From NCBI RefSeq assembly GCF_964355755.1, contig NC_092673.1, forward strand, positions 19,465,648-19,529,647: a stretch of 64,000 nucleotides of DNA, written 5' to 3'. Positions 3,201 through 57,344 of this stretch are shown one piece after another. Below the pieces are notes generated by a model that saw nothing but the letters and a program-made list of their open reading frames with translations, had not been told where the DNA came from and did not search any database. Each line of letters starts with the position of its first letter. Position 1 is the stretch's first letter. Source of the stretch: Antedon mediterranea. Taxonomy: Eukaryota > Animalia > Echinodermata. The translations under genes and the position numbers were made by a program.

Positions 3201-6200
3201 AACCTATTAAGAATAATCTAACCAGCTTCCATGCCATTACAGGTTGCAGCACGTCATTATTTGCTGGTTATGGGAAGAGGTCATACTGGAAATCATTTGT
3301 AACGCATCCACTCCTTGTAAATGGAATTGATTAAGATTAAGACTTTCCACGTACAGTGTACACTAAAGTTTAATATTGCCAAATATATGGTACTCTTGAG
3401 CAGAACTGTATAATAACAGACTACTCTTTGGTGCTACCTCCATCTAGACTCAGTGACTATATACCATTAACACTAGTGATATATAGTTTATCTGATTATT
3501 TTGAAACTACTGATCATGCATATAATACAAGAATTAATCATTATTTTAATTTAGCCATTCCTCCTTGTCGTATTAATTGTGGACAATTTAGAATTTCTTT
3601 TTCTGGTGCTGTTATTTGGAATGATTTACCTTTAGAATTACAAACAATTACATCTAGATTTGCTTTCTCTAAACAACTTAAAGAATTACTTTTATCTAAG
3701 TATATAAAAGAATAATCTATAATTTACAATGTTTTTATATATTGTTAATTCATCAGATATTATCTATTGAACTGATATGGTTTTGTTTATTACAGTATAG
3801 TACATACAGCACTTATGTTATGTTATTTTATTTATTTATTATTCAACATTTTTTGTTTTGTTTTTGAAGTTATCAAATTTTTATTTTCTTTTAAGTTCTG
3901 TTATTTATTTGTTAATTTTGTAGCTTAAGTTAGTTAAGATAAAAGGTACCAAGCTTGATTAGCTTCGGCTATACCTTGGCTACCTTTTGTATTAAATTGT
4001 TTTTTGTTTGATACAATAAAGAAGATTATTATTATATTTCCCTTAAATATTAAGTATTTCACTTCACTCAATAAATATTTAAGTACCTGTATTTCTACTT
4101 CGGGAAACACTTAAAATTAAAAAAACTCGCCTATGGTGAATACAGACATCATAGAACCTGAACATACGAGCCAACTATCAGGCAGAGCTATAAGTATGTG
4201 GCCTAAATGAATCGGGTCGTTTGGAAGCCCCTAACCCAGTTGTCAGTTTGGAACTTGTTACATGTGCATGTAAACTAAAGAGCCAGATGAAGTTGTTACA
4301 GAAAGCATGCATATGTGGTTGTGATTCAATCGTTTGCCGTTACCCAGATGGCCAGTAGGCATTATATATCAGTGCTTGAAGAAATACCCACATCAGAGCG
4401 TTACCTCCTTCCATCCCAGAAAAATTTCGAATATTGGCATGTGCCCATGCCGCCCATTACTCCCAACCCACAAACCCTCTGTGACCGTTTTTAAATGAAA
4501 TTTAAGACATTCCAGTAGGCCTCCAATTTCGGTTATTTTGATACTCTAGGACTCATCCTCTCCATTCCTTGAACACCTTCCAGGAGTGACTCAAAAAGTT
4601 TAAAATCTTCCCAGTACAATTCTGGTCTTTTTGACACCACACTATAACCATCAGCCCCAGGCTATCATGAAAATTATATTTATTTCAATTATTAATACCG
4701 ATAATTAACAGGTCTGTGCTCTATTTGACCTTATGACCTTGAAAATGACCTTTAAACTTGTAAGTTGAAAAATTGATGAACTGCACCATCTACAGCAATA
4801 TGTCAATAATGATCCAATAATGGTTACATTTCTTTTAATTAGCTTATATGTTGTTGAAAACAGCTTAAACCTCTATTTTACCATATTTGACCTTATAACC
4901 TTGAAAATGACCTTTGACCTGAAATTTGAGAGCGGCATCCACCCCTATCTTTTTTGTCATCCCATAAGGGATATATTCCACATGGTTGCCTGCTATTAAC
5001 ATAAAATGCCCCCCATGATGAAAAAGCTCACATTGGCCGCCCTACTATTATATAAAACCTAAATAGATTCCTCTCATTTGATTGGACAATTGTGGGTCAC
5101 AATAATAATATAGTAAAATCTAAGTGGCCTAATTTTATGCTCGCCAAAAACGTGGTTATTTCGGATTTTACCGAATGAAGCCTAGACAGCGCGTCCTCCA
5201 TAACAACAATACTTTGCCCATGCTCCAGCGCAAGATAGATAACTGTTGCTAAGCTCCTATCTTATAACACTACGCTCCCTGTAATTCCATAGACGCCTTC
5301 TATTCGATTTAAAATCTAAATGGTTTAAATTTTTGCAGTCCGCCTCAAACTTTCTGTGGTTAACCATCTTGAGGGTTGATTCATGAAAAAGGTAATAAAT
5401 TATGTAAACAAAGTAAAATAATAGTTTCTTTTGGATCTGGACACTTTCCTATTAATTCTGTGTGTTTACATCCGTCTTTGACCGAAACATTGTACAATAT
5501 TGCCTTGACAATGACTTATTCTGCTTCATATTTGTCCTCCTGATTGGTGTCCATGGGATTACGAATATCTCGCACAATCATCTATCTTGCGCGCTATACA
5601 ATCTTTGCTAGAACTACGCTTGACCTCCCATAGACAACAAGCACTGGAGTTAAATGATAATGCAAACCCTCAAAAACACCAAAAAACAAATCAAATATGT
5701 GGTCAGTAGGCTATAGTGGTAAATATCTTCTTTAGATGTTTAAAAAAAAAAAAAATTAGGTATCCTAGGCCTACGTTTCAATCTGAATCAAATGTAGGCT
5801 AGGCCCAGGCCTTTCATTCAATCAATCTGAATGAAATGACAAGAATCTACTTACTGTAGATGTTATATAAAAATAATTATTTTATATTCGTGCTATGGTA
5901 TAATTAATCTCATTCAGTAAATAAATAAGGTCTCACTTGCTTGCTTTTTTTTAGTTTTCATAAGATTGTGGCAAATTTTAACCAACTCTTCAAGTTTAAT
6001 TGCATATGTATACTTTTGCACATATATACACATGTTATACAAAATGTACATACAAGCAAAAATATTTGAATTTATGAAAACTGCCCAGATTAATTCTCAG
6101 CTATTAACAATGATTCTCAACATTCTAATTATAATTTAGTCTATAGTATTAACACAATTATTATTATTGCAGATCTTCATGACCTCAGAAGCACTTTACA

Positions 6201-9200
6201 TTGTAGTGTTCGATCTTAGTAAACCCCTTGATGATCTTGCTAAGGTCATTGATGCTACAAGAGTAAGTATTTCAAGAACATTTAAATTGTTGTGTTTGAA
6301 CAATTCATCTTGATGAGGACTTTATACTTTATATGCGTCACAAGGAGTTTAATTGTTAAATGTAATTTCTTTCAGCTTACATAAGTTCTGTTTTAATCAA
6401 TTTGAAATACCAATTTTGTGTAATTTTTTTGTTTACAGGAAGAGCGTGAACATCATTGGACCAATCTCCAGTTCATATTATCTTACATCCAGACGGTTTA
6501 TTCTCATAGTCGTATTGGGGGAGAAAACACAAAGAAGGGAGTTCAAGAACCAACTATCCTTATTGTGGGTACACATAAGGGTAAGCTTGGTAAGACTGAA
6601 GAAGAACAAAATGTTGAGGTTAGATACTTATTTTAGTTCTACATTATTAAAAATAGCAAGCTGTGTACATGTTGTTTTAAATAATAATGTAAACAGGCTG
6701 ACTTCTGGTGTTTTACATATTCAAGTTAGATTCAAAGAGCTTAAACTGAAATTTTTTTCTTTTCATTATTTATTATAATCAGGCAAAAAAAGTATTTGAG
6801 AAGATTGAAAATACGCTTAAAGAAAAACCATATGAAGAACATGTATATCACCAATATTTTGCCATTGAAAACAGTCGAGAAACTGCAGATAAGAGCTTCA
6901 TTAAACTCAAAAAAGTTATTGACAAGCTTATGACAGATTTAAAAAAGGATGTCCCTTTAAAGTGGATGCGTTTTCGATGTGATCTACATGATCTAAGAAA
7001 GGATGACCTGAGAAGGCAAAAACCTTTTCTTTTGCATCCTTTAAAAGAGGTAACATTTATTTGTCATCTTCTTTATTTTGTATCTACTAACTATAAGAAC
7101 ATCACCATAGCTAATATATATATTTTTTTAATTAATTGAAAATATTATTTCCCCATTCATATTACTGTTGTTAATGCACTCTGGCATATCATGCGCTATA
7201 TACACATATAAATTAGCTCCACAGTGGAATAATATACGAATAATGAATTATTTGTTTTATAACACACCTACTTTTAATAAGAGGCTACAACAAAACTAAC
7301 ACTAACAGAGAAGGTAGCACTTCAATTTTAGACATGGACTAGAACAAAGTGCACGATTCATGACACACACTACAGCCTTGTGTCACGCATAATTGCTCTT
7401 GTGACATAAATACAAATGAATAAAGTTGAAAGAAGATTCCTCCGTGTATTTACTATGCATTAACCACTTTGTCACAGATAGATTATTACATACCGCAATG
7501 AATTTTATTTTGTTACTAAGATGACATCTTTAAACATTTTTAAAAAAATATACGCTGTCAAAGTATATATTTCTTTCCAACGTTAATATACGAAGATTTT
7601 AAAGAAGAAGGAATGTTAAGTTTGTAATTCGGTCCAAGAAAATGTCATAGTGCGCGTGTAAAATGTTTTAAATGCTTAAAATAGACTAAACATACTCTAA
7701 TTTCATCGAAAATACATGTTGACAATTTTGAAAATTTTAAGCGTGCGTTTGCATGCGTTTTATGCGCTACACACATAATTGTATTGCCATAATGATGAAA
7801 TATGACCTGAAGTTTATGAGTATCAAATTTGGTTTAATTATGATTAATGCTTGTGAAGAAAATTGGGCTTTTCATGTATAATGTTACTACTAATCAGGAC
7901 GTGCGTTTTTCATCGCTCTTTATTAAAATGGTTCTTACCATAATTATAATACAAGATCTAAAGACAAAATGAGACTCAGAAAACGTAATCGTACTTCTAC
8001 TAGTTTTACTGTGTCATGTGTGGGACCTAAATTGTGGAATGACTTGAATTATGAACAACAAAATACCAAATCAATATATATATTTAAATCATTGTTTAAA
8101 GAACATTTATTATCATTTTACAAATAATTTTAAAATAATACTTGTTGCAGGATTTAGCTTTTTAGGTGATCATTTAGAATAAAATGATCACCTATTGTTA
8201 TTGTATAAAATATTTATTCTTATGATTCTTCTTTATTTCTCTCTGTACAGATTTTGTGTAACAAATATCTCAAAAAGTTGAATGTTAATGATTACCAAAA
8301 TTTCACAATGTCTTTCAAATACTTTAACTTAGTCCTAATAAGCTTTTCAGCGTGATCACTCATCCGTGACGTCATTTATACGCCATTTTGTGAAATCACA
8401 TTATCAATCATATCTCCATAATTCATTATCACATATTAACGAAATTAACAACACGTAAACTTCAGGTCAAGGGTAAAAATATTATCAAATAAAAACGCAC
8501 GCGCACGTAGGGTCCTGCACGTGAAATCGCGCGTTAAAAATTTAAAAAGCCTACCTCAACCAAGTATGTTACTCATGAGTTGGCAATATTTTCATTTTGA
8601 TGACGTCATCACGTCTTAAAATTTGAATAACAGTGGTTACGTAATTTCACCCACAACGTATATTTGAATACCTTACAGCTCTTCTGAATTAAAGTTGACC
8701 TTGATGTTTATAACTTATTATGAGAGCTGGTGAAATTTAGATATGAATTCATATAAAAATTAAGCTGATCGGATGTTGTTATCATATGGCCAGTTGAAGT
8801 TAAAAATAGTTTTTAAATTTCTTTAGTCAAAGTTATACAAATTTCAAAGAGCGCACATTGCGCTTCTACGTGTCAAATTCTCTTCTAATTCTTATATTTA
8901 TTTGCTCAATTCATTATCCTTCGAAATTATCATCTTCGAGTTTGTTTTGATAATTCCATCATACCAAAAAATTAGAACATGATGTGTGCCCCGTAATTTC
9001 ACCTATGCTACACTGTATATAGATATATACAGTATATACGGTACTGTATAATTATTGTATATGGCATATAATAGGCACAACTCAACACTATAAGCGTATA
9101 ATAGGATGGAATACATCATCATTTTCCGATCGTATGTTAACGTACGTGCATGTTTAAAAAAAAAAATTTCAGTAATTAATTAATATCAATAATTAATTAA

Positions 9201-12200
9201 TTAATGTCAATAAAATGATAAAAATGATCACCTATAATTCGTCAAAGTGACGAATTAAATTCTAGTTTTAATTATTTATGTTTTAGTTTTTAGGCTAGTT
9301 AGGGACGTAGGGGGACACAATTAATCAAGCTCCTTTGAGTTTTTATGTGTTTCCTTTTCATCTTTATTTTATGTTCTCATATATTGTTGTATATTTTCAT
9401 GATTGGTGATGAATAAAGAATATTTGAATTTGAATTTGAATTTGAAGATATGATTACAAACGTGATTTTGTTAAATCGTGCGTAGACCGTGTAATATTTT
9501 TATATTTTTGTGTCTTCATACTGTGTGTGATTAGGCTAATTTCACTACAAGCATGTGTATGCTAAATTTGGTGTAATGGTTATATAACCAGCTTTTCAAC
9601 TAACAATAGTTTCAGTTGACTAACAAATTATAACATCAACGCCAAAGCAAACGGATGAATTTGAAAAGAAATAGGTTTTTTCTGAAACTACTCATATCAA
9701 AAAACCTGTATATTAAATCCAATTATGTTCACAAATTACAAATTATAACTCTTGCCTCTTGTACAAAAAGTTTTTTGAACAAGTACTTCTCGAGAAAATG
9801 CAATTTCAGTTTACTTGTTTACTTTAAGACTGCACGCCAGCTTTTGAAAATTCTGTCCTATCTTTTAACACTAGCAGGTCTGAACAATTTTAAAAAGTGG
9901 TCCATAATTGGGAGGGTGATCCATGATAATGCATATAACATAATAAAACATGACATGCCTTAATTCCTTAGATCAAAACACTGGCTGCTAAGAATGGTAT
10001 TGCCGAAAAGGAACAATCAGTGCTACTTAACTTCTTGTATGATATTGGTGAAATTATCTACATGCCTGACAAGGAATTATTAAAAGATCAGGTGGTGTTA
10101 ATTCCCGATAGCTTGGTTAAAGTTTTAACCAGATTTGTAACTGTGGTTCCATCAAAAGTAAGTAGGCTCATATCAAATTATAAACAAGTGCTCAATATCA
10201 TTTCTTGTTCCTTTTGGAAAAAGTTTTATTTTTCAAAATAAACTGAGGTACTTATTCTTATAGGCAAGATTATTTTAAACAGTTGTAGTGGTATAGTGTA
10301 AGATTATATGTGATCCTTAAAACTTTTCATAGTGTCTATTTGAAGAAATGATGCATATTATTCTCAAAACTAACATTGTTGTTCCCAACATCCCTCTCAT
10401 TCAGTTTCTGAATATTCATCTATCACTAATGTAATAAATACAGAAACACACAATCACATTTATGGCTAATTATTGGTGTTTTCTTTTAGCCGGTCACGTT
10501 TAGAAAGGCTTATCGTCAGCTTGACAAGGGCATACTGGAGGAAGACTTATTGCGAAACTTTTTTGAAGAGTGTAAAGTAGATGTAGATGTATTAAAGAAA
10601 TTTGAGTTACTTGTAGAACTGATGATTCAATTAGGTTTCATTTGTGAGATGAAGACAACCAGCAGCCCAGATGTGGCAAGTACATCTACAGTAGGTTTTG
10701 TTTCTTTTTATTGTTTATGTAAGGGCTAACTGAAACAAGTTTACATTTTTATGCTCTGTATTATTTGTATGGTATTTGATGAAATAAATGTTTGTTGAAC
10801 TTGTAATTTCCAATGTTAGTAGTATGATTTGTCTGCGATTTTACTGAATATAGTATACACAATTTTAGCCTTCAGACATGATTTTGTTAACATTTATACT
10901 GAAAGATATTTTTAACATATATAACTGATCTTTGGTTCTTTTAAATGACATTAAACAAAATTATCAATTTCAGGGTTCCATTACAAAGCGGTCATTTTTT
11001 GTGCCACTACGCCTTGCTTTCAAAACATCAAGTGAAGTAAAACAGGAGCCAGATGATTCACAATCTATCAGTATCTATTATGACTTTGAGGGATATCTGC
11101 CAGATGTACTGTTTCCATATGTCATTGTGGAATGTCTTAACAAATTTCAATTGGAAGGTTTTGAGCCAAAATTGTCATGTAATCATTGTAAACTTTACCT
11201 TGACCAATTTCATCATGTGACCGTATCTCTTGTCCAATTCACAACTAAGGAGGATAAGCAAAAGTTCTTGTTAAAGGTACATACAATCTCTAATAAATGT
11301 TCAATATATATTTGTTTTTATAATATTTATTGTCAACAGTGTCATACATCTGTTGAATAATATAAGTCAGAATTTACTGTACACATGTATAAACATAATA
11401 ACAAAAATAATTTTTTTATCCAGATGACTGTTAAAAGAACAAATTCTTTTAAACAAACAAATGATGAAAAATGTGAACCATCCTCTGAAGCATGTCAAAA
11501 GGTATTTTTTAGATATTTTTCTAGGTTTTTAAATTCTGTAGATAGTTTGGTTTTTTAAACATTCTAAAACCATTTTTGAGATGACACATAACAATTATAC
11601 TGCCCACTACTTGACTTAAAAAGGTGGTCTTATGTCTGGTTGCGTGAGAGCGCTTATGTCGACATTTCGAGGAACTGAAGGGAACCAGTGTCGTGGTTAC
11701 CATAAGACGAGCATCACGCGATTTGTAGTTGTATGAGAATCAGTATCTGCGGTAAATTACCCACTTGATTACCCATGCCACACACATGGTTTTCAGTTTC
11801 CAGGTCCATGGGCAACTGAAAGCAACTAAGCTTATGTCAACATGTTTTGTGTGCCAGTCAGTTGCTTTCAGTTGCTCGGAACGCTTAAGTCGATACAGTT
11901 GAGTTCCATGTCGACATAAGAGCACATTTTAAGTTAAATATTACAGTTAAATTTTATATTTCAATTTTAAATAAACTAGGAATAGAAATTGGATTGAAAT
12001 TGAAAATAACAAAAATGAGAATATTAATTATGATATTAATCATGATATAGTAATGATATATGATGTTAATATTAATTAAAATTAATGAAAATACTAATCT
12101 GGAAAGCACTTCCAGATGACATACTCCTTAACCAACCAAGTTTGAAGTTCATAATGAAGTCTTAAAGTTGACTAATGCCAATTTAAGGTTTTATTTATTT

Positions 12201-15200
12201 TTTTATTTTAACATATAAACTTTCACTAAAATGGATGATGAGCAATTAAATAGTTCATTAAAACCAAATAAACCAAATTATTACAGTAGTACATAAACTT
12301 TATAAACTTCAAATTATTAGAAAAAAATAAATAAATAAATGCTCGTAATAATAGTTACAATAATAGCAAAAACAATATGCATATAATTTATCTGGTATTT
12401 CTTTTTATTTTTAATGTATTGTAAATAATATATAACACAATATTCTAAGAATATGTGCTGCTATTTTAAAGAAGTTTTTATTATTGTGTGAATTAATTTA
12501 AATTTCTGCATGTTTGAAATCATAATCCAATTTATATTTTTAGGTGTTGTCAACAGTTGAGAAGACATTTAAACAATCTAAAGATGGTGGTAGAAGAGGA
12601 ATTCCATTCAAGAGATGCATTCCTTGTGATTGTAGTCTTACATCAGAAAAGAAGCATTTTCAAATTCTTCCTAATTTCCAGTACGAAAGGTTGCCATGTA
12701 ATGAAGATGACAAGATTTTAAACACAAATGTTGAACGTTACAAGCTACTATTTGGAGGTAATAGCAGTGACAAAATTCATTATTGATAATCTATACATTG
12801 TTACAACATGCTGCTATTAGCTGTGATATCTTCATTCCTCTTAGTAGTAGTAGTACTATCAGAATCATTATTGATAATCTATACATTGTTACAACATGCT
12901 GTTATTAGCTGTGATATCTTCATTCCTCTTACCAGTAGTAGTACTATCAGAATCATTATTGATAATCTATACATTGTTACAACATGCTGCTATTAGCTGT
13001 GATATCTTCATTCCTCTTACCAGTAGTAGTACTATCAGAATCATTATTGATAATCTATACATTGTTACAACATGCTGCTATTAGCTGTGATATCTTCATT
13101 CCTCTTACCAGTAGTAGTACTATCAGAATCATTATTGATAATCTATACATTGTTACAACATGCTGCTATTAGCTGTGATATCTTCATTCCTCTTACCAGT
13201 AGTAGTACTATCAGAATCATTATTGATAATCTATACATTGTTACAACACGCTGCTATTAGCTGTGATATCTTTATTCCTCTTATCAGTAGTAGTACTATC
13301 AGAATCATTATTGATAATCTATACTTTGTTATAACATGCTGCTATTAGCTGTGATATCTTCATTCCTCTTACCAGTAGTAGTACTATCAGAATCATTATT
13401 GATAATCTATACATTGTTACAACATGCTGCTATTAGCTGTGATATCTTCATTCCTCTTACCAGTAGTAGTACTATCAGAATCATTATTGATAATCTATAC
13501 ATTGTTACAACATGCTGCTATTAGCTGTGATATCTTCATTCCTCTTACCAGTAGTAGTACTATCATAATCATTATTGATAATCTATACATTGTTACAACA
13601 TGCTGCTATTAGCTGTGATAAAATCATTCCTCTTACCAGTAGTAGTACTATCAGAATCATTATTGATAATCTATACATTGTTACAACATGCTGCTATTAG
13701 CTGTGATATCTTCATTCCTCTTAGCAGTAGTAGTACTATCAGAATCATTATTGATAATCTATACATTGTTACAACATGCTGCTATTAGCTATGATATCTT
13801 CAGTCCTCTAACCAGTAGTAGTACTATTAGAATCATTATTGATAATCTATACATTGTTACAACATGCTGTTATTAGCTGTGATATCTTCATTCCTCTTAC
13901 CATAGTAGTACTATCAGAATCATTATTGATAATCTATACATTGTTACAACATGCTGCTATTAGTTGTGCAACACAAGAATATAGGCACACAAGTAATTTG
14001 ACCAATGACAAGTGAATAAGCTCAGATGAGCTGTGCATTGCATCTTGGTGTGCATCCATGAGATACTTTGCTGGACCCAATGGTGTCCACTTACAGGAGG
14101 TTCAACTAATATTTTTTATTTTATTTGCAGATGAAACAGAAAGAAAAAGAAAATATTCAGATCAAGGTAATTGATTGAAATAAGTAGATAAATTTTGCAA
14201 AATGTTGTACTTTTATGGACTCAATGATATTTAATTATAATAAAGTATTTGTCTTTGTTAATGCTGTGCTGCCCTCAATGACGATTGTTTGAATCTCTAG
14301 GATGCAACACAAGAGCGTAGGCACAACAATAGTAATTTGACCAATGACAAGTGAAGGATTGGATAAGCTCAGATGAGCTGTCGCTTGTTGTAGATTACCC
14401 GCATGGCAATTTCATCTTTGTGTCTCAAGTGATTATAGTTAAACATGGTATGCAGTGCTCCTCCCCTCCCTTAACAAAACACTCAATTGATACTATCAGC
14501 TGAATCTGTCTGTAGGCACTTTTATAAGCAGATACTTTTGTGGACCCAAGGGTGTCCACTTACAGAAGGTTCACCTAGTGTAATTTTTTTCATTTTATTT
14601 GCAGATGAAATTGGGCCAACTGGAAGAAAAAGAAGAAAACCAGACCAAGGTGATTGAAATATTATATATCAGATAAATAGATTATTTAAAAAAAAATGTA
14701 AATTGTACCTATGTTTTACTTTTATGTACTCAATGATAATTAACTAGTATTATAACATGGGTTCAAGGATGTACAGTGGCCAATCAGATGCGCTGAAATG
14801 AGTCACATGTGCGCTCTTATTTTTCACTATCATGCACTGAAGTGGAAAAAGTTCCCAGCAAAAAAGCATAACACCACTGCATGTAAATCATATAGCAGAG
14901 TATTACCGATCGTGCTAGGCATTTTCTAGGCTAGGCGGTAATTTGGTCGGCAAGCAAAGGGGTGATTGCTGCTCCCTAGGCCTTGTCGGTGATTTGGTCG
15001 CCGAGCAGAGTGGTGATAATAATTCATAGACCCATGTTGTAAAACAAATAACGCACAATTCTAAATTTGTGCGCTACTGGAGATGCAACGCACTCTCTGG
15101 TATTAACAATGTTGTGCAACATACACCATTGTAAATACCCTCAAGTTTGCCTTATCTCCTCTAACGCACAAATTTAGACTTGTGCGTTATTTGTATAATA

Positions 15201-18200
15201 AATTATTTGTCTTTGTTAATATCAATGAATGTTATTTTAGCATAAGATGGGCACCATGATTTATTCAGTGCATACATGTTCTAGAAATGGATATGTGTAT
15301 ATTGCATGTCATTGTGAGAGTCTAACAAATACGCAGAGTATTTATATTATAATATCATGGACTTATAAAGCTCTGTATGTTGTGAAACCTCTCAAAGCGC
15401 TGATCATACAGTAGAAAATTGAGGGAAAAAACTAAACCCAAACCTAAGTATGTGATATGCCTTTGCAATGTGTGACTTGGCCCGTCATCCCCGACTCGAG
15501 TGCTTCCTACCCTAGTAAAGACAATATAACTATAACAAGATATCAAATTTATATTCATGAAAGTGTCTCATAAACAAGCTTCTACTATTCTCAACTGCTA
15601 CATTTGTTGCTGAGCCGCTTTCAAAATTGTTTAATTTATCCCTCTCAACTGGTACCATTGCCAATGACTGGGTGAAGGCCAACCTGATTCCTATCCATAA
15701 ATGAAATTGGTATAGACAATTTTAAGTAGCAAATTTATGTTAGTGGCGGTTTTCATCGCTGTTGGTTTTGATCGAATAAAAAATAAAATGATGAAGGAAA
15801 TAACAGAATGTGATGATGATCTAAAAACCTTCAACAGTTTATAAGATACATTGCTGCATTTATTATAACATTTGAACATGTGATAATGTGCTGTTGTGTT
15901 GGCAATATAGAATTTGAATGGCATCCATTGAATTCATTTCATTTCATTTCATTCATTTTATTCATCAAAAAAAAAAAATTATAAAACATGTAAAGATAAA
16001 ATGCATAAAAGATGAAAAGGATCAACAACAAAAAGCTAAAAGCTTGTACAGGGTTGAAGACCTAAAATAACAACTATAAAACAGCTAATAATATAATAGG
16101 AAATATACAATATTAAAATATATATATAAAGTAACATATTATTTCATTATTGTATATTTTATTTGTTACAGATGATGTGGGGACAAGTTCAAATCAAGGT
16201 ATGTTATATTAGGCCAATGTTTCGCTAATGTGATGTGCCCACATATGGACATGATGATGTCATATCACTACCATATTTGGGTATATCACTCATATTTGGG
16301 CACATCACACTTTTTATGTCAAACAAGTTTGATAGTGTATTAGTAATGCACTAGGCTACTTTCCTAATGATCAAATCTCGATTATCCAGTGTAAAAGTGA
16401 CATGTACATAAACAAATCCTAACATACTTTAAACATTATACTTCTCATTTTTATCATTTTCAGGTAGTAGTAGTGATGAGGATGAAAGAGAAGGAACATC
16501 ACTGAGTCACCCACACCAACAAAGTGAAGGTAAGATACTAGTAGATAGAGATAGTGATATTGTGATGATAAGTCCTTAATTTTAATTGTTTAATAAACCA
16601 AAACTTTCCACATATAGCCAAGTCTAGAATGACACACACGTGACTGTCAAATTTTCCAGAATTTACAATATTAAGTATTCCAACGTTGACAGTAGCTTCA
16701 TATTTGTTTTGAACTTGACCCGAACTTGACATTATTCCACAAATATTTTTATTTTGAAATAGTAGAGTGGAGAGAGAAAATAAAACAAATTTAATACTGT
16801 TTACTGTTTTACATTTTGTTGATATTCTATACTGATGATTAAGTACAAATTTATTTTGATTTTTGAGTGGGTACAATAATGATCACTGTCAAATGAATGT
16901 CCTGTCATTTTATTTGCAGACAAGAACACAATTGCAGGATCGAAAACTTGTGACAATTTCCAAGACCTAAAAGCTGGTCTCAGTGGTTGCTTTGATGGCG
17001 AAAGATATCGTTGGCTAAGGTTCCTACTATTTGATAAGTTGGATGTCGGTGAAATTACAAATCAAGATTTCAATGGACATGACTTACTTAATGTACTTGA
17101 AGCTAAAGGTTTAATCTTATCAACCAATGTTAATTTGCTGTTGGAGATTACAAAGTTATCAGATATCAAATATGCCAAAGATCTTGTATCAAAGTATATA
17201 AGAGACAACGTTCAGTTTAGAAATACTGATAAAACCAAGTTGTCGTTTTACAGAAAGCGGCTGTTTAAAGCCCTGAAACAAGTTGACCCACGTGCATTAC
17301 GTAATGTTATATCTTTCTACAAGTTAAGAAGATATAGCTTCTCCAATGTTTGGGATGCAGTTCTCTATCTGGAGATTCAGCAATTATTAGCAGATGATCC
17401 AGACAAAATAAATCGGTTTGCAGATCGTCTCGGCACAATAGCAAGTAACATTCTACTTGGTATGCATTTCTACTTTATATTATATTAAGTTTTTTGTATT
17501 GTTATTGTTATTGAATCATTCATTTTTTTAAACAGTTTACGTAATTGTAATCTGATTAAAATAATATTTGGTTTCATTTTAATCATTAAAATTTTACATT
17601 AACTGATTATTTATAGGCAATAGTGAGAAGAAATGAGACAGCATCATCAAGTCACCAATGTGAACAAAGTGAAGGTAACTTATTCAGTTGGGAGATAAAC
17701 ATAAAAAATGAAGATCATATATGATTATAATATGATTAAGATAATAATGACATAGAAGTTGGTGATATTGAGGATATTACTCACAAATTTAGGATTTATA
17801 AAACAAAGAATATAATAATGTAGATAGGAATAAAATAATTAGAGTGAGTAGTTTTTTTGTTGTTGTTTCTAATAGCTGATTATAGATATAGAAAATCATT
17901 GAATTATAATTATTATATTATATTCAAATAACATCATGAGGTAATTTCCCGATTGATCGTAATCAAAACGGTACTGGGTTTGGTCTACTAGCGTTCCTGC
18001 TCCCAACCAGTACATCCATTCATAGAAGCCTTAATGAAGTAAGCCTACCTGGTGGTGGCTTTAGTCGATAGAAGATTGAATAAATTGTTAGAGATAGAGT
18101 ATACGATGTTATGATTCTGTGTAGATATGTGATTTGTTCTTTTTATTCAAATGATGTTATGTATTTAATAAATTTGTTATATCAATTAATTAAATTATCG

Positions 18201-21609: not shown

Positions 21610-24600
21610 GGAAGGATCTAAATCTCCCTACTCCAATCCAGGATTTCTTCTACGCATGTGTAGATATCTACTACGTCATCATATATATATCGTATTTTAT
21701 TTGCGGTCCGGCCATGTAGTATAATACTCGCACATCGCTATTTTATACCCTATATCGCTTTCTCACACCATCCCACAGCTATATAAGCTATAATACACAT
21801 GAAATGAAAGGGTACCAAACATTTGCAGCAGTTGAAAAAGATAGTATAATCGGGTTATGTTTATGCTGTAGGAAAAAGGAGAATCATCGTAAACGAACTA
21901 ATCATGCCTACTATTCCGGAATCCACTGTATAGCCGTATACCTGCCCTGACGCATGACAAATAATAAATATATTATTTGTCATCCGTCAGGGCAGGATTG
22001 TATGATTCCACTGACTGTAGGCTACATAGCCGTCGTATACCTGCCCTGACGTATGACAAATAATAAATATATTATTTGTCATCCTTCAGGGCAGGTATTG
22101 TATGATGCCACTGTACATAGCCGTATACCTGCCCTGACGGCTGAGACAAATAAGACATTTATTATTTGTCATCCTTCAGGGCAGGTATTGTATGATTCCA
22201 CTGTACATAGCCGTTACCTGCCCTGACGGCTGACAAATAATAAATATATTATTTGTCATCCTTCAGGTCAGGATTGTATGATTCCACTGTACATAGCCGT
22301 ATACCTGCCCTGACGTATGACAAATAATAAATATATTATTTGTCATCCTTCAGGGCAGGATTGTATGATTCCACTGTACATAGCCGTATACCTGCCCTGA
22401 CGTATGACAAATAATAAATATATTATATTTCATCCTTCAGGGCAGGTATTGTATGATTCCACGGTACATAGCCGTATACCTGCCCTGACGTATGACAAAT
22501 AATATATATAGCATTTGTCATCCTTCAGGGCAGGTTGTGATTCCACTGTACATAGCCGTATACCTGCCCTGACGTATGACAAATAATAAATATATTATTT
22601 GTCATCCTTCAGGGCAGGATTGTATGATTCCAATAGCCGTATACCTGCCCTGACGTATGACAAATAATAAATATATTATTTTTCATCCTTTCAGGGGAGG
22701 ATTTTGATTCCACTGTACATAGCCGTATACCTGCCCTGACGGCTGACAAATAATAAATATATTATTTGTCAGCCGTCATGGCAGGTATACGGTACGTACA
22801 GTGGAATCATACAATACCTGCCCTGAAGGATGACAAATAATATATTTATTATTTGTCAGCCGTCAGGGCAGGTATACGGCTATGTACAGTGGAATCATAC
22901 AATACCTGCCCTGAAGGATGAAAAATAATAAATGTCTTATTTGTCATACGTCAGGGCAGGTATACGGCTATGTACAGTGGAATCATACAATACCTGCCCT
23001 GAAGGATGACAAATAATAAATGTCTTATTTGTCAGCCGTCAGGGCAGGTATACGGCTATGTACAGTGGAATCATACAATACCTGCCCTGAAGGATGACAA
23101 ATAATAAATGTCTTATTTGTCATACGTCAGGGCAGGTATACGGCTATGTACAGTGGAATCATACAATGCCTGCCCTGAAGGATGACAAATAATAAATGTC
23201 TTATTTGTCATACGTCAGGGCAGGTATACGGCTATGTACAGTGGAATCATACAATACCTGCCCTGAAGGATGACAAATAATAAATGTCTTATTTGTCAGC
23301 CGTCAGGGCAGGTATACGGCTATGTACAGTAGAATCATACAATACCTGCCCTGAAGGATGACAAATAATATATTTATTATTTGTCATCCGTCAGGGCAGG
23401 TATACGGCTATGTACAGTGGAATCATACAATACCTGCCCTGAAGGATGACAAATAATATGTATTATTTGTCAGCCGTCAGGGCAGGTATACGGCTATGTA
23501 CAGTGGAATCATACAATACCTGCCCTGAAGGATGACAAATAATATATTTATTATTTGTCAGCCGTCAGGGCAGGTATACGGCTATGTACAGTGGAATCAT
23601 ACAATACCTGCCCTGAAGGATGACAAATAATAAATGTCTTATTTGTCATACGTCAGGGCAGGTATACGGCTATGTACAGTGGAATCATACAATACCTGCC
23701 CTGAAGGATGACAAATAAATAATATATTTATTATTTGTCATCCGTCAGGGCAGGTATACGGCTATGTACAGTGGAATCATACAATACCTGCCCTGAAGGA
23801 TGACAAATAATATATTTATTATTTGTCAGCCGTCAGGGCAGGTATACGGCTATGTACAGTGGAATCATACAATACCTGCCCTGAAGGATGACAAATAATA
23901 TATTTATTATTTGTCATCCGTCAGGGCAGGTATACGGCTATGTACAGTGGAATCATACAATACCTGCCCTGAAGGATGACAAATAATATTTATTATTTGT
24001 CAGCCGTCAGGGCAGGTATACGGCTATGTACAGTGGAATCATAAAATACCTGCCCTGAAGGATGACAAATAATATATTTATTATTTGTCATCCGTCAGGG
24101 CAGGTATACGGCTATGTACAGTGGAATCATACAATACCTGCCCTGAAAGATGACAAATAATATATTTATTATTTGTCATACGTCAGGGCAGGTATACGGC
24201 TATAGTGGCATCATACAATCCTGCCCTGAAGGATGACAAATAATATATTTATTATTTGTCATACGTCAGGGCAGGTACGGCTATACAGTGGATTCCGGAA
24301 TAGTTTAGTAGGCATGATTAGTTCGTTTACGATGATTCTCCTTTTTCCTGCAGCATAAACATAACCCGATCATACTATCTTTTTCAACTGCTGCAAATGT
24401 TTGGTACACTTTCATTTCATGTGTATTATAGCATATGTAGCTGTGGGATGGTATGAGAAAGCGATATATATTTAAGTAATACGGTATAAAATAGCGATGT
24501 GCGAGTAATATACTACATGGCCGGACCGCAAATAAAATACGATATATATATGATGACGTAGTAGATATCTACACATGCGTAGAAGAACTCCTGGATTGGA

Positions 24601-26760: not shown

Positions 26761-27660
26761 ATCATCTCACAGTGTGTTGATTGACTTGGTACTGTAGACC
26801 ATTCACTGTGACTGCTGTGTACAATCTCACAGTGTGTTGATTGACTTGGTACTGTACACCATGCACTGTGGCTGCTGTGTACAATCTCACAGTGTGTTGA
26901 TTGACTTGGTACTGTACACCATTCACTGTGGCTGCTGTGTACAATCTCACAGTGTGTTGATTGACTTGGTACTGTACACCATGCACTGTGGCTGCTGTGT
27001 ACAATCTCACAGTGTGTTGATTGACTTGGTACTGTAGACCATTCACTGTGGCTGCTGTGTACAATCTCACAGTGTGTTGATTGACTTGGTACTGTACACC
27101 ATGCACTATGGCTGCTGTGTACAATCTCACAATGTGTTGATTGACTTGGTACTGTAGACCATGCACTGTGGCTGCTGTGTACCATCTCACAGTGTGTTGA
27201 TTGAATTGGTACTGTAGACCATTCACTGTGACTGCTGTGTACAATCTCACAGTGTGTTGATTGACTTGGTACTGTACACCATGCACTGTGGCTGCTGTGT
27301 ACAATCTCACAGTGTGTTGATTGACTTGGTACTGTACACCATGCACTGTGGCTGCTGTGTACAATCTCACAGTGTGTTGATTGACTTGGTACTGTACACC
27401 ATGCACTGTGGCTGCTGTGTACAATCTCACAGTGTGTTGATTGACTTGGTACTGTACACCATGCACTGTGGCTGCTGTGTACAATCTCACAGTGTGTTGA
27501 TTGACTTGGTACTGTACACCATGCACTGTGGCTGCTGTGTACAATCTCACAGTGTGTTGATTGACTTGGTACTGTACACCATGCACTGTTGCTGCTGTGT
27601 ACAACCTCACAGTGTGTTGATTGACTTGGTACTGTACACCATGCACTGTGGCTGCTGTGA
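26761..27660. repeat. 60-bp minisatellite, 15 copies
   Basis: Unit ACAATCTCACAGTGTGTTGATTGACTTGGTACTGTACACCATGCACTGTGGCTGCTGTGT repeats on every 60-nt line. Confidence 0.97.
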
Positions 27661-32343: not shown

Positions 32344-32778
32344 ATGACGTCACCCGATAAAATTCCGATTAGCAATACATGTTATAATGCCTGATTGTAA
32401 TGACTAGAGCCTTAAGTTATGTACTGTATGTAGCATGACGTCACCCGATGACATTCCGATTAGCAATACATGTTACAATGCTTGATTGTAATGACTAGAG
32501 CCTTAAGTTATGTACTGTATGTAGCATGACGTCACCCGATGACATTCCGATTAGCAATACATGTTACAATGCTTGATTGTAATGACTAGAGCCTTAAGTT
32601 ATGTACTGTATGTAGCATGACGTCACCCGATGACATTCCGATTAGCAATACATGTTACAATGCTTGATTGTAATGACTAGAGCCTTAAGTTATGTACTGT
32701 ATGTAGCATGACGTCACCCGATGACATTCCGATTAGCAATACATGTTACAATGCTTGATTGTAATAAATAGAGCCTAA
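32344..32778. repeat. 91-bp tandem repeat (about 4.8 copies), each unit with a TGACGTCA (CRE) palindrome
   Basis: TGACGTCA starts at 32345, 32436, 32527, 32618 and 32709. Confidence 0.9.
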
Positions 32779-32906: not shown

Positions 32907-35900
32907 ATGGCAGCAGGTACAACAAAATAAACACGTTTTTTTAGTAATGGCAAGTTATTCAAATCGTTGTCTTATTTGTTTTCTGTTACCATTTTTTTTT
33001 ATAGATTTTGATCTGGATTTAGTATATGTTTCAACTTGGTATGATGAACACGACCTCTTGAGACAGCTGAAAGTTTTGTACCAAGATTTGATTGCAGCAT
33101 CGAAAATAGACAGCGCCACCAAAACGATACACTTACTACAGGAATTAAGGGCAAATGGACGTTTAAGTTCAGACAATCGTATATTGCTATACGACACAAT
33201 AAAAGTAACTGAACAGTTTGGTGTCATAGATCGTCTCAAACATTCTTTTCTTGAAGTTCAAGAAATTACTAAGTTCACTCGATATCGACTACAAATTGTA
33301 GCTTTCGGAAATGGACTTAGACAGGCTGATGTGGACAGAATCGATGCATTGTACAATGGTAGTGCGTTAAAGAATTATAAAGATGCCTGGAGCATGATTC
33401 TGGATTTTGAACAGAGAAAAATAATCTGTGAAGAAAAAATTGAAGAATTCATTAACAATTTAAGACAAGTTGGACTGGGAGCAAGAGTAACACCTCTGAC
33501 TAAAGGTATGTTAGTGCGAAAAGCCTAAAAACATTAATTTGGTAAAAAAAAAAAAAAAACAGTCTTGACAACATTAAATCCATGTCCGCCGACTGAAGGT
33601 GCATGTTAATACATTGCTGCTGTTTTGTTATTATTATTTCGTATAAATAATGAAAAATATTTGTGTTGAATTAATGCAATAATTAATAGATATTTTTATT
33701 AGCGGTATAGAATATCATTGTAGCATTTTTTGTCCGTTTACAGTAATTGTTTCTCCATTACTAAATAATGTACCGTATAATTTTGGTGAAAGTAAATACT
33801 TGGCCTCGTACTACATTTCTGTAACAATCAAACATTCTTAATGCATTAACAACATGAGATGAGTAGTAGTAATTAGTACGGTCTTTATTTAAATTTATAT
33901 TTAATTTTACTTTCTATGGTCCAGAGATTCAGACATAAAAGATTGAATGAATAATAAAATCACATCGTCTTACTTTAATCGTAATTAATTTGAAAATAAA
34001 ATGTCTTCATAATAATAATAAAAACAATTGATGAGATTTTTGTAATCAAATTGAAAAATAGTAATTCACCGTAATAATTCATGTACTGTAGTTACAACCA
34101 TCTTGGTTCAAACAACATTGTTATAATTTCGTTCTGATTAATGCTATATTCTGTTTGTCGCCCTCTATAATACCTTTTATTTTCATGGATACAGCATTAA
34201 TTATTAAGGCCTATAAATGCACAATTGTATCATGTCATTTGGCATCAAATTGTGGATAATCATAAATAAATGTGATTATGACGTAGATAATTGTGAATTC
34301 AGTTTCAATTGTAAACATATTACGCAACAAATAGCCTTTTAACCTAATAACATACATGCATGGTATTAAAAAAACAAAACAATATGTCGTGTATCCTTTC
34401 ACCAAAGAATAGAATATGTAATATCAATGATATAATTGCAAACGTGTGTTTACAACAGCAGCTCCACGATAATTACCAGTTATTTTTAATTTAGGATAAA
34501 TGGTAGGTTTTTAATTAAATTAATTCGTATACGCGTGCAATAATATTTCAATTTTGAATAAAAGCAAATTCATTTACAATTTTAACTTTTCCTATTAAAA
34601 TTAATTGTCAAAACTATCACTTTGAACGCAATTTCTATTATTTCTGTTATTTGGTATTGCTTTCGTATTAAGAAAAAAAGTTGGTTTTTTTTTGTGGTTT
34701 TTTTTGGACTTTATTTACTCCAGATGTTTTAAAAATCTATTAAAATCTTGATTCAATTTTCAGATATTGCTGCTCGTGAATTATATTTTCAAAATTAATT
34801 TAGGTGTACTAAATAACTGATCCAGTATAAGTCTGTTTGTGTTCTACAGTATGTATAGATAATAAAATGGTTTAATTTCTACTTTTAAAAATTAAACAGC
34901 ACTCATTATTTATGAAGGAAACTGAAACTTTTTTACAGTATTCTCATGAAACTATAAATTGCAATTTACGTTTTAAAATCTTATTCAAGGTTCAGAACTT
35001 ACTTTCGAAATTGCTGCTCGTGAATTAGATTTTCAGGAAGCCTACAATGAAGCCTTGAAAGAGGGTAAAGTGAAAGTCAATCTTGGAATGCTTAAGGTAA
35101 TTGGACAGGAAGGAGTTGGTAAAACATGCCTCATAAATGCATGTCTTGGAAAAGAGTAAGTAGTAGATTGATGATAATGGTTTACTTGTTATCTTTGGGA
35201 AGTGAGGAGGGCAGAGGGAGGGGAGTGAATGGGTTTTATTAAATGTTATGTAGATTAAGTAAGATTACTTATGTATTTGTCTATTTTGTGTTATATACTT
35301 TGTTGGACGCACCTTCAAAATGTGAAGTGTGCCACTGTTACAAAAGTGAAATGAACATTACAAAATATTTGTGAGTCAACTAAGAATTACAAACCAGCCA
35401 ACTTCTTGATATGTTTTTGATACCTACCACTTTCTAAATATTGCAGTGATAAATCTAACAACAGTTGAATTATAACAACTTTTAGAAATAATTAAATCAG
35501 TTACTACCTAATTATAACACCATCACATTTTCTATAGATTATAGAATTTAATTTTAATCTTGTCTTCTAAAAAAAAATCATACGAATTGTTGGATAACTT
35601 GACTTCCTAAATATATAATAATTGAATATATTAAAATGGTTTTGAATTAAAAGGAGAAAATTGAAAATTTTAGAGTACTTAAAATGACTGAAAATCATTG
35701 TTGGTTACAAATTATTATATTTCTGTCAGATTTGAGAAAGACCATAACATTACAGATGGCATAGCAGTGATTAGAACAGCAAGCACAACGTGGACAGAAG
35801 ATACTGCTGATAGTGGTAAACAATTAGCATTATTACTTTTACCACCATCCATGTAAAATTATTATCTTTAATCTCATCATAATAAACACAAACAAACCCA

Positions 35901-38900
35901 CAATAAAATGAAAGTATAGATGGAATGTGTTACATTATTGTACTAAATAATTAATATGATCTTCTAGAAGATATAGAGGGCGCATGATGAGAGACACGAA
36001 GTTGTCATGGACACGACTTCTTGAGCTGAATAAAATAACAGTCTATTTGTATTTACATCTGTCTCTAGTTTCAGTATCTATAACATAGTGAAACATAACA
36101 TAACATGGTGACCCCGACCAAAGGACAGGAGAATTAATCAAGATTCCTTTGCGTAAAATAACGAGAAAGTCAGCTAGGCTAGCTAACCCCTGCACCGCCG
36201 ACAGAGCGCCGAGAGAACGTCGCAGTGAGGCGTCCAACAAGTTAAAACGTGAAACCGTGAGTAGCGTTGTACAACGACGTACACCATATCATGGCTTACG
36301 CAATCCCACCGCCAAAGGCAATGACCTTTGCGGGAAGCGGTAACCTAGAGAAGGCTTGGATAACTTTCAAGGAGGCCTGGGTAGATTACAGAATTGCTGT
36401 AGGCCTTGACAAAAAGAACACTAACATTCAAATTGCTACACTAAAATCAATCATGGGAGATGACTGCCGTAAGAGACTAAAAACATTAGGGCTCACAGAC
36501 GCAGAAATGACAGACCATGACACAATATTAGCAAAGTTACAGGAACATTTTAAGCCCACACGGAATGTTCTATACGAACGGCACAGATTTTACACTGCAA
36601 AACAAGAAACTGGCGAGACCATCGACCAATATTTTGTCCGTCTAAGACAATTGGCAGAAGAATGTAAGTTTGATACGAAAGAAGACGAGATGCTAAGAGA
36701 CAAACTAGTAATAGGATGCTCTGACGCGGCTGCGAAAGCCAGAATCTTTCGTCTAAAAGACAAAAACACTGATCTGAAAACAACACTAGAAAGTTTGAGA
36801 ATCAGCGAGGCAGCAGACAAGCAATTAAAAGCGTTGGATCACGAGACTAACAGCAATGTAGAGGCAGTAAACTACAACAAGCCTAACTACAACAAACACA
36901 AAAAGCTGTGGAACGGTACACAAACCGAGACAGTGTCCAGCGTATGGCCAGTCATGCAGAAAATGCGGAAAACGAAACCACTGGGCCAAGAAATGCTTGT
37001 CTGGGCAAAAGAACCCCAGACATGCGCATGAAATACAGACGACCGCAGATGACCTCGATGACCCAGCAAACTACGGGTTTGACCTTGACGTGATTAACAT
37101 TGATACATGCGAAAGCAGATCAACCAGAGGTGAAAAATACGCTGTCATAATAGTTAGAACCGACCACCAACAGAGCATACGCCTTAAAGCGAAAGTTGAC
37201 ACAGGTGCCGCGAAAAATATACTAAATCACAGCACATACAGAGCTCTATTTGGTCCCCGTCATCAAACTGAGAAATCGCCAGTAACCCTCACAGGCTATG
37301 GAAACATACCAATCAAAAACCTTGGCAAAGCTTCAGCACGTAGTGTTGAACACAATCGGATGAAATTGAACAATGTGGAGTTTATCATAACCGAGAAAGG
37401 TAACAACTTGATCAGCCATGACCTATGCTGCAAGCTAAACATTGTCCGATACCCATGTGAGAAAGAGCAAAACTGTTGCACAAACTTTGATATTGAAGAG
37501 TGTGAAAACATCACAACAAAAGAGCAACTCATTAAAGAAAATCACGAGACATTCAAAGGAGTAGGAAAAATCCAGAATGAATACGATATCGAACTAACAC
37601 AAGATGCGGAACCAACAATAAAGCCAGCCCGAAGAACGCCAGAGGCACTGAAGATTCCGCTACGCAATGAACTAAACAGATTAACTGACCTAGGAATCAT
37701 AAAGGAAGTGCGTGAACCAACGGACTGGGTCAGTAACATCGTACTCGTAACAAAACCGAACGGAACACTCCGTATTTGTTTGGATCCTCATGACCTCAAC
37801 AAGGCTGTGAAAAGACCACACTACTACGCGAAAACCTTAGATGACATACTCCCAGATCTGCGCGAGGCGAAATACTTTTCAACGCTAGACCTCCGAAGCG
37901 GGTATTGGAATATACCACTTACCAACAGATCACAACTATTGACAACATTCAGTACAATTTACGGGAGATTTTGTTTCACAAGACTACCGTTCGGACTGAT
38001 ATCTGCACAAGACGTTTTCCAAGTGGACCTAGATGGCATATTTGGCAATATTCCTAATGTCTTCTGCATCAAAGATGATATCTTAATAGCAGCCAAAACC
38101 AGTAATGAACATGAGAAGGCCATACAAGATGTCATGAAAGCATGTAGAAAGGAAAACATCAAACTAAACCCTGATAAGTGCCAAATTAACAAGCGAAACG
38201 TCAAGCTCTTCGGACATGTACTCAGCAAAGAAGGAATTGCACCCGACCCAGCAAAGGTAACAGCAATACAGAACCTAAAAGCACCTGCCAACAAACAGGA
38301 ATTGCAATCGCTCTTGGGACTAGTACAATATCTGTCCAAGTTTGCGAAGCTGAGCCATCTAACAGAGCCTATAAGGAAGCTCCTACAGAAGGATGCAGTA
38401 TATGAATGGACACCGAGCCATGACAAAGCGCTCGACAACATAAAAGACGCCATCATAAACACTCCAGTCCTCGCTTATTTTGATGCCAGGAAAGAGATCA
38501 CAATCCAGTGTGATGCAAGCATGAAAGGCCTTGGAGCAGTGCTCATGCAACAAGATAAACCAATACATTACGCATCAAAATCGCTAACTCCTGCAGAGAA
38601 AAATTACAGTAACATTGAGAGAGAAGCACTAGCTGTCGTATGGGCCATAAAACACTTCAGATATTATGTGTTTGGACGCGAATTCACAATCTGCTCTGAT
38701 CACAAACCATTAGAAGACATCGCCAAGAAGGACATCTCAAAAATGCCAAGCAGACTCCAACGACTGATGCTGCAAATGCAGGATTACAAAGGCACAATTA
38801 AATATGTACCAGGCAAAGAAGTCCCGATAGCAGACTGCCTCTCGCGCTGCATAGACACTAATCAGAGAACATTTCAAATTCCTGATCTTGATGTCCAGAT

Positions 38901-53634: not shown

Positions 53635-55638
53635 TCACAAAACACAGAAGATGACTAATCAATGTTTGTAAAAATATGGAATATTTTATTTATTTGTGTT
53701 TCATTTTATGCTTCATTTTTGTTCAATTCAAGAAACATTTATTGACCAAAAATATTATATCATAACAATGGTTTGCATATAATATATATAGTCGAGAGAC
53801 TACAAAGGCCCAATGGGCCTGTCGCTGTAGTCCCTCTTTACATTATACAAATAATAATAATACAACACTTAATCTTAATTAGCCATTACGTACATTATAT
53901 AAATGGAAAAAAAAAAGAATACAGTATCTTAATTAATTAGGTTAAAAATTGGTATATATATATATATTATGCCAGTATTGTGTTTAATAATAAATAATTT
54001 AAATAAATGGAAACATCTAGTTAGTTTATTTTGTTGTTACTATTACAGTCAACTCTCCCAATACTAATATTATTTTACTATGAATTAAAGTATTTATTAA
54101 CAAATGAATTTATGAATAATTTACATAAGGCTCAGAAGAAATGGACGAATAACCTAAAAGATAAATTATTAAAACTATCTAAAGACTTGATGTTAATAAT
54201 TTAATTATTTTATCGATTCCTTTTTCTTTCTTACCTTATCATAATGGACACAAATCCTGCATATCAACGTAAAATCTGTTTATAAGCATCACATACAGTT
54301 TAAGATTTTTAAGATGACAATAGTTCAAATACATGTAGCATGTCAATATAATCTGTATGTATTGGTATTTGTTTAACATATATATCTTTCTATATTTGCA
54401 TTATTTTATATCGTATACATGTCAATTTAATCTATAGGTATGTGTATTTGTTCAATATATATACTTCTATACTACTATAATATGTTATACCGTAAATACA
54501 AATTGTAAGTAGTAGTTGTACTAAGATGACATCGGGTATGAAGCGTCTCACATACACACAGAGCCAAAATTGCATCTTGGACTTGCACCGTGTATGGACT
54601 CTAACCTTACGGTTTCCATTAAATATACCATTTCATGCTATCATTCTAAATAACTAACTTTCAACCTACTGCATTCCTCTTTTTTTCATACCATCCATCT
54701 TATCTTGGTGAAAAGGGAGGATACTACATTTTCCTCCCCTGAGTTTATAGCCTCTCTACTCGAACACAAACTCGAACACAAATAAGATCACAAATAAGAT
54801 AGTTTAACAAGACAATTTTAATCATGTATTTTACCGCCATTTTTCATTTCTACATTTTAATTAACATCGTATCTAAAATTTTAAATGAGAAAATATATGG
54901 TTAATATAATGAATTCTGGCATCTTATTATGTAAATATACCGGTATTTTAACTACTCTAAACACTTACTTTTAATTGTCACAAATGTACTTATATGTATA
55001 TAATATATTCATCAATGAGAATTTAAATAAACGTGAGAAGAACTCACACAAGACAAAAAAAAACTCTCCCAATACTGGACACCTTTGGGCTGGCATAATA
55101 TTTCTAGTTTTCTGGAAAGTCTGGTATTCAGAATGTGTTTCTAATGGTAAATAAATATGGGACCTTTTGGAACTCAAGAAGTGTCTGTTTTTAGGAAAGA
55201 GTTTCTGGTTTTTGTGGCCAGTATTGGGGGAGTTTTTTGTTATATTAGTTCTAATTTAATTCAAATTATGCATCTTTACACATGTGGGTTTGTTGCTGTC
55301 AATTATAATTTGTTAAATTTGAATGGGCAATAGGGATGTCCAAAAAAAAATGTGAAAATTGATGTTTTCAAAATTATATTATCATCTATAATTATGAACA
55401 AGTAATTGAGAGAAGCAATCCAATTTTATTATTTTTGAGTGCATATAAAAAAAACTAAAGTAGAATGTTCAAATTTTAACAAAATGAAATTAAAACAATC
55501 TATTGTCAAAATTGTTGAGGTCTGACAATGGTGATGATGAGAATGGTGCTGAAAATGTTGATGATAATGATTGTTAATATAATGAATGGTGCTAAATGTG
55601 TTTGACACAATTTATGTCAAACGCAGAGCAGGACCAAT

Positions 55639-56780: not shown

Positions 56781-57344
56781 TTATTTTGTCCGTAAATAAA
56801 TCCAGAGATTAAGTTCATCTTGCTATGTCAATTTTTCAGAGTATATTCCTTATGGCCAGGAATTGATGTGATTAGCTTTTCACACTGCACAATCAAATAT
56901 TACGCGGCTACGTGCAATTTATCGAAATCACGTTTGTAATCATATCTTCACAACCATGTATCATAATTAAACAAAATTTAGTACTCTCAAATTTTAGCTC
57001 ATATTTCATCATATTCGGCCTTAACATGTCAAAAAAATTGTCCAAATTTTTTTTCTATGAAATTAGTATACGTTTCATGCAATTTTTTAAACGCTTAAAA
57101 AAATACACGGAGGAATCTTCAACTTTTATTCAGGTGTGTGCTTGGTGGTCTGTGATCGCATCTATGGCATTCAAGGTACTGAGATCGAGTCTCACCTTGG
57201 GAAATGAAATAAGATTTTTTTTAAATATCCATATTGTTTGTTTATATTCATGATTTATAATGAAATCTAGAGAAAAATTTTTTTTTATTATTATGTAACA
57301 AGGGTGGTTTTGACAAATACGCAGCAAGAGCATTGATCAGATTG

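Follow-up and report, generated by a model that had tools for sequence, protein, structure and literature searches.

The aspartate of the G4 motif is the guanine filter of Ras-like GTPases. A stretch of 64,000 nucleotides from the feather star Antedon mediterranea, referred to here as the window, carries two genes (A and B) of the Roco type, relatives of the Parkinson's protein LRRK2, in which a glycine occupies the place of this aspartate. The locus raises the question of whether such Roc domains still bind a nucleotide and, if so, which residue reads the base. Both genes encode ILIVGTHKGKLG in 60-codon exons at 6439-6618 (gene A) and 45439-45618 (gene B), and the translated peptides of these exons are 73% identical over 60 residues. 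The motif reads VGTHKG in either gene, with GGT as glycine codon at 6580-6582 and 45580-45582, respectively; in the NCBI model of gene B (P0003) it corresponds to T437-H438-K439-G440. The exons are bounded by AG and GT ends. The initial annotation reported VGTHKG and WDHGGQ in both genes and an intact P-loop and switch-I threonine in gene B, all of which is confirmed by translation: WDHGGQ is found at 853 (gene A) and 43164 (gene B), and GQEGVGKT and ITDGI at 35103 and 35749, both in gene B.

P0003 is an A. mediterranea model of 1130 aa that has 100% identity to the G4 exon of gene B and maps to 18 coding blocks from 33004 to 53631; like all exons and coding stretches described here, these are located on the plus strand. 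An N-terminal DED-bearing exon (33004-33507, aa 4-171) is followed by the P-loop exon (34992-35156), the switch I exon with the conserved threonine (35731-35817), two exons of a long insert that separates switch I from switch II (40965-41036 and 42322-42423) and the G3/switch II exon (43060-43205). The Roc domain continues in an exon between G3 and G4 (45130-45219), the G4 exon and an exon comprising G5 (E481-N482-S483, Glu codon 45899-45901) and the start of COR (45815-46066). Further COR-region exons (46566-49043, aa 537-874) lead to a second DED-bearing exon (50507-51049, aa 875-1055) and to the last two exons (52980-53631), where a hydropathy scan identifies a hydrophobic C-terminal stretch (aa 1073-1121) that is a predicted membrane anchor. 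Pfam recognizes DED, Roc (PF08477, 55 bits versus a cut-off of 27) and COR-A (PF16095, residues 510-646, 42.2 bits versus 35.3) in P0003. COR directly follows Roc, and the profile alignment runs through the COR of LRRK2 and of the Chlorobium tepidum Roco. Judged by these matches, gene B is a feather-star Roco gene with the architecture DED-Roc-COR-DED-membrane helix.

Gene A is its paralog. The P-loop and switch-I exons of gene A are situated upstream of the window, which covers its G3/switch II exon (749-894), the Roc exon between G3 and G4 (6173-6262), the G4 exon, an exon with G5 (FAIENS, Glu codon 6867-6869, assigned by LRRK2 alignment) and the COR start (6783-7049), and five stop-free COR-region exons (9972-10157, 10490-10690, 10974-11276, 11424-11501 and 12544-12757). 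No retrieved protein matches gene A at ≥ 97%, apart from motif-sized matches to the P-loop exon of gene B. Downstream of gene A, a DED-like coding stretch (16883-17461; weak Pfam DED match with E 0.0027, below cut-off) can be either the end of gene A or the start of the next gene. This stretch and the exon at 33004-33507 are the DED-type exons between the two Roc domains; related sequence stands at the C-terminus of P0018 but at the N-terminus of P0019, so it is uncertain where the genes of the array begin and end.

The alignment to the LRRK2 Roc domain that was asked for in the initial annotation, made here with a profile of 52 relatives, matches VGTHk to VGTHLD and places Gly440 on D1455. 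The same profile pairs yFavdns with LRRK2 YHFVNAT (G5), and counting from the LRRK2 start at 1440 gives Gly440 = D1455, Glu481 = N1489 and Asn482 = A1490. In an AlphaFold model of the paralog P0014 (pLDDT 81), the G4 motif ends strand E217-223 of a Ras-like fold. Alignment and model both place VGTHKG as the true G4 motif. Compared with a canonical GTP-specific TRAFAC G domain, gene B has a regular G1 (GQEGVGKT for GxxxxGK[ST]; the gene A counterpart lies beyond the window edge), a switch-I threonine at G2 (ITDGI, paired with LRRK2 ATVGI) and the DxxG of G3 (D350-H-G-G353-Q354), and Gly440 takes the position of the aspartate in the [NT]xxD of G4. A displacement of the aspartate by one position was considered and rejected, as 24 of the 26 rows of the Antedon clade have no acid at G4+1 to +3. 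The glycine codon is not an assembly error. Contigs of four runs (10, 43, 38 and 33 contigs at ≥ 80% likeness) list no change in its first two bases and only a synonymous change at the third; three of these four runs represent one sample, which may be the assembly's own source.

How unusual a G4 motif lacking its aspartate is was assessed among the best 150 of 1347 representatives at 50% identity, from which 144 proteins provided 146 domains with an aligned G4 and six proteins provided none. The residue at this position is D in 88, N in 22, E in 13, G in 12, K in 4, R in 3, A in 2, and H and Q in one domain each. The initial annotation had reckoned with THKG being common in Roc families, which applies to the absence of aspartate, frequent in invertebrates (58 of 146 domains among the best 150 of 1347), but not to glycine itself, seen in only 12. 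Crinoids, sea stars, a brittle star, a sea urchin, a nemertean and clams are among the organisms with Asp-less domains. Of 105 domains in a wider set, which includes LRRK-like, amoebozoan and bacterial Rocos and has a few poorly aligned distant rows, 92 keep the aspartate and 13 lack it. On a tree of 275 domains its state changes at least 20 times, and the substitutes include G (36), N (25), E (16), A (8), K (4) and R (3). Variation of G4 and G5 among Roc domains is also reported in a Roco review (PMC6337361). The glycine by itself is an ordinary substitution for this Roco branch and less exceptional than initially supposed.

The histidine of WDHGGQ is no defect either, since it occupies the variable x of DxxG and leaves the D, the G and the following Gln intact; the first x after the aspartate is F in 116, Y in 20, H in 9 and L in 4 of 149 domains (best 150 of 1347 representatives). 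A compensating role for this histidine was rejected, as most Asp-less Rocs lack it and the Asp-bearing P0152 has it. One protein of the sea star Acanthaster (P0069) combines G3 His, G4 Gly and G5 Glu; it sits on a long branch elsewhere in the tree. At G5, 208 of the 275 Roc domains have Asn, whatever the state of G4, at the position of the LRRK2 alanine A1490 (the gene B G5 is at 45899-45907); this constitutes a second departure of the base pocket that is common to this branch.

The loss of the G4 aspartate is associated with glutamate at the first position of G5. The set of 275 domains is what remained of 314 aligned segments after the removal of 39 that were fragments or had no G4 or G5. Glutamate occupies the first G5 position in 74 of 96 Asp-less versus 12 of 179 Asp-bearing domains; 22 Antedon-clade rows and the use of a crinoid query inflate these counts. 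The remaining 22 Asp-less domains have Asp there, hence an acid is found in 96/96 Asp-less versus 97/179 Asp-bearing domains (85 Asp, 12 Glu; none in the other 82). Because kin share states, the tests were done on trees. A Pagel-type likelihood ratio amounts to 33.7 when G5 is left out of the tree and 33.3 when it is included (FastTree). The G5 Glu column ranks first of 242 columns on both trees, ahead of a runner-up (21.4-21.7) that is also located in G5; the 95th percentile of column scores is 13-14, and the G4/G5 neighbours 483, 441 and 484 score high as well. This likelihood test is our own unvalidated code and is liberal, with 37 of 242 columns above the nominal 5% level, so the rank counts and not the nominal significance. 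The fitted rate of Asp loss is 2.0-2.4 with Glu versus 0.07 without; the order that this suggests is one in which Glu arises first and frees the Asp to change.

An independent-pairs test on the 275 rows gives 3.4-4.6 pairs in the same direction versus 0.5 in the opposite direction and does not reach significance (median p 0.125-0.25, and 0.5 with the small-residue split). The same test on the first set points in the same direction, again not significantly (median p 0.22-0.63). These non-significant tests fit the reading that there is no compensation at all and that the domain binds GTP weakly and exchanges it fast, the G5 Glu being a lineage marker or a loop-stabilizing change. Mutations in G4 and G5 of KRAS are reported to raise exchange (PMC11526993), many of 298 surveyed guanine-binding complexes, albeit of mixed folds, have no G4 acid (PMC11594714), and the variability of G4-G5 in Roc domains noted in the Roco review (PMC6337361) agrees with it too. 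The rank of the G5 Glu above all columns on two trees and its invariance in the Antedon clade (22/22, with a median column conservation of 0.86) speak against this reading, which we regard as unlikely.

Nested joint changes are seen within the tree. P0047 (G4 D, G5 D) lies within a clade with Gly/Asn and Glu, and P0172 and P0168 (both G4 G, G5 E; the latter on a long branch) lie within Asp clades. The nearest sister group, from Anneissia, has THRD with DIEN or DIEH, i.e. Asp and Glu together. As this group is among the 12 domains that carry both residues, the G4 Asp and the G5 Glu can coexist. A strict one-for-one swap of Asp for Glu on the Antedon branch was rejected, since the Asp-bearing Anneissia sister already has Glu. 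On this unrooted tree, where neighbouring crinoid clades have Asn or Gly, the Asp of Anneissia may be an ancestral residue or one that was regained. The statistical link between G4 Asp loss and G5 Glu is the new element of this work; the sources searched, general reviews and LRRK papers from mostly non-subscription literature, gave no description of an Asp-less or ATP-binding Roco or of G4-G5 coupling; supplementary alignments may still show Asp-less Rocs.

Structural data on other GTPases bear on this link. The G4 Asp binds guanine N1 and N2 (PMC11594714; PMC2213587), and H1453, D1455 and A1490 are reported as guanine contacts in LRRK2 (PMC8467336). In Ras, S145, the first G5 residue, is hydrogen-bonded to the G4 aspartate D119 (PMC2213587), which makes the covarying G4/G5 pair known structural neighbours; LRRK2 N1489 is equated with Ras S145 since both precede the G5 Ala. 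The initial annotation allowed for another acidic residue that fills the role of the aspartate, and this holds in part, with the G5 Glu as a candidate replacement. We tentatively favour, at a little under an even chance, an active switch with a rebuilt base pocket, in which the G5 Glu would replace the Asp and GTP would be kept with looser selectivity. The phosphate-binding and switch motifs of the A/B family would be retained, and Gly or Ala at G4 would leave a gap into which the longer Glu side chain could reach. There, the Glu may contact guanine N1/N2 and take over base reading, so that the Roc domain stays a GTP switch of relaxed selectivity. As the architecture suggests, such a switch may govern how the DED modules assemble for death or innate-immune signalling at a membrane. 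From the DED modules and the expansion of the family, we infer a role in death or immune signalling; Roc-COR proteins are tied to such roles in other organisms (PMC8195603, PMC11378527).

The covariation also fits with a Roc domain that prefers ATP, its G5 Glu reading adenine, which is the main rival and, in our estimate, possible but rather improbable. In SpoIVA and Era, a G5 Glu together with loss of the G4 Asp sufficed for a preference for ATP, and the weak constraint on the G4 position was read as relaxed selection (PMC7952092); G4 varies widely across the 275 domains too. When ADP is docked to Miro, its adenine amino group comes to lie on the side chains equivalent to S145 and D119 (PMC6321465). 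The SpoIVA Glu is, however, the third G5 residue, whereas in Antedon Glu is first and Ser third. The aspartate is regained or kept beside Glu in 12 domains and G4 is Glu in 16, which fits continued guanine reading, and 85 of 179 Asp-bearing Rocs already have an acid (Asp) as first G5 residue, which argues against an ATP preference. A bolder version, to which we give little credence, is that a whole branch of invertebrate Rocos has repeatedly moved its base-reading acid from G4 to G5 and that the feather-star Roc domain is an ATP-using switch. It would then be the first Roco ATPase found in nature and would drive immune or death signalling through DED modules.

The likeness to SpoIVA, a TRAFAC GTPase turned ATPase, consists of a degenerate G4 Asp and an acidic G5 residue (PMC7952092). 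SpoIVA belongs to an unrelated family, in which the G4 Lys is replaced by Ser/Thr (PMC7952092). Its G5 reads SxE with Glu third (PMC7952092), a pattern that the Antedon E-N-S does not follow. Its ATP preference was measured (PMC7952092).

The A/B family is under purifying selection. Over nine aligned exon pairs, genes A and B have no stops, with dS 0.44, dN 0.21 and dN/dS 0.47 by a simple counting method; dN/dS over the four Roc exons is 0.44. Across 28 models of the Antedon clade, G4 is HKG in 22 and HKA in 4, the region being absent from two, and G5 is A[IV]ENS in 22 of the 22 models that include it. The P-loop GKT is intact in every model that includes the P-loop (15 by pattern, plus P0037), and the switch-I Thr, DxxG-Gln and T-H-K are retained wherever modelled. 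The initial claim that the change does not reflect decay stands, given the nine stop-free exon pairs, their dN/dS and the conservation of G1, G2, G3 and G5 across the clade. Its use of two divergent copies as separate evidence does not, as A and B share one inherited state of a 26-row clade (SH-aLRT 100 on a quick tree with the motif columns left out). WDHGG, THK[GA] and A[IV]ENS mark a single clade whose named members all belong to A. mediterranea, as do all 22 models matched in a G4-exon search. The Gly/Ala state of G4 is old within this clade and maintained. As 19 of these 22 models share a longest contig of 36,192,472 bases, the clade looks like a tandem gene family, its size being judged from protein models only; over the G4 exon, contig depths add up to tens of times the value of the flanks, and such depth is no copy number.

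That the clade comprises pseudo-GTPase scaffolds or decaying duplicates without nucleotide binding is very improbable on this record. In favour of it are the dN/dS of 0.47, a high value for an enzyme, the partial nature of many NCBI models (the P-loop pattern is missing from 13 of 28) and a young LTR element within a gene B intron. The conserved P-loop Lys-Thr, switch-I Thr, DxxG-Gln and T-H-K nevertheless argue against a dead domain, and the stop-free exons argue against decay, as does a spliced paralog junction in run X1, which we guess to be RNA. Coverage in this run ends at the exon end, and the loose end, read by eye, continues as the beginning of the next exon; this suggests a spliced transcript of a paralog, other than A or B themselves, across the G4-to-G5 exon junction. 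Among the runs that matched the G4 exon in the run search, none is on record as RNA.

The Antedon proteins resemble the Roco family (LRRK2, LRRK1, DAPK1, C. tepidum Roco and Methanosarcina barkeri Roco2) in the order of Roc and COR and in the aligned G1, G2 and G3. Structural comparison places the P0014 model closest to LRRK2 Roc-COR (Z 20.9, rmsd 3.7, 208 aligned) with LRRK1 second and non-Roco GTPases at ≤ 17.9, whereas Foldseek alone placed Rab proteins first. The Roc-COR tandem and the modelled fold together identify them as Rocos. They differ from LRRK2 at G4 (THKG versus THLD) and G5 (Glu-Asn versus Asn1489-Ala1490), and from known Rocos by about 90 extra residues between the switches, an insert of low confidence in the P0014 model (residues 85-106), and by DED modules and a C-terminal hydrophobic helix in place of LRR and kinase domains. 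Expanded invertebrate death-fold Rocos of echinoderms, molluscs, corals and amphioxus share the Roc-COR core, with varied death-fold partners and a frequently Asp-less G4. The nearest Anneissia proteins keep the G4 Asp, in contrast to the Antedon clade.

The natural series of Asp, Glu, Asn, Gly, Ala, Lys and Arg at G4, coupled to one G5 residue, offers a resource for the study of base reading. Natural pairs such as Antedon THKG/AIEN and Anneissia THRD/DIEN, THLD/AIDN and THLG/AIEN bear on base reading and on possible ATP use by Rocos, and the Antedon family points to an unstudied crinoid expansion of DED-bearing Rocos. Outside the window, the A. mediterranea protein P0010 has two Roc-COR units, the first canonical (WDFAGQ, THMD, VDN) and the second Asp-less (WDHGGQ, THKG, IEN); this may reflect a genuine tandem arrangement or the merging of two neighbours. 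In P0020, also from A. mediterranea, an Asp-less Roc-COR is fused to a protein kinase on its N-terminal side and to Death domains on its C-terminal side, and the Antedon clade thus shuffles its partner domains.

Several repeats were observed in the window. A Ty3/Gypsy-type LTR retrotransposon (35928-40708) within a gene B intron has 178-nt LTRs that are 100% identical. Its ORF at 36261-37028 is gag-like, and its open pol frame of 1100 aa (36871-40170) gives matches to protease, RT, RNase H and integrase; the element is a very recent insertion. The gene B intron after the G3 exon contains a very high-copy repeat (43300-44900), where contigs reach a depth thousands of times greater than in the flanks; part of this repeat matches 8556-9103 in gene A. 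An open frame of 321 codons (55606-56568), for which no matching Pfam family was found, presumably resembles the endonuclease end of a Penelope-type retroelement. Near-identical segments at 56876-57567 and 59186-59906, about 2.3 kb apart and each with a 29-bp tandem array, represent a recent duplication or assembly redundancy. Minisatellite arrays are located at 12777-13968 (88 bp units), 22037-24292 (88 bp), 26764-27659 (60 bp) and 32344-32776 (91 bp).
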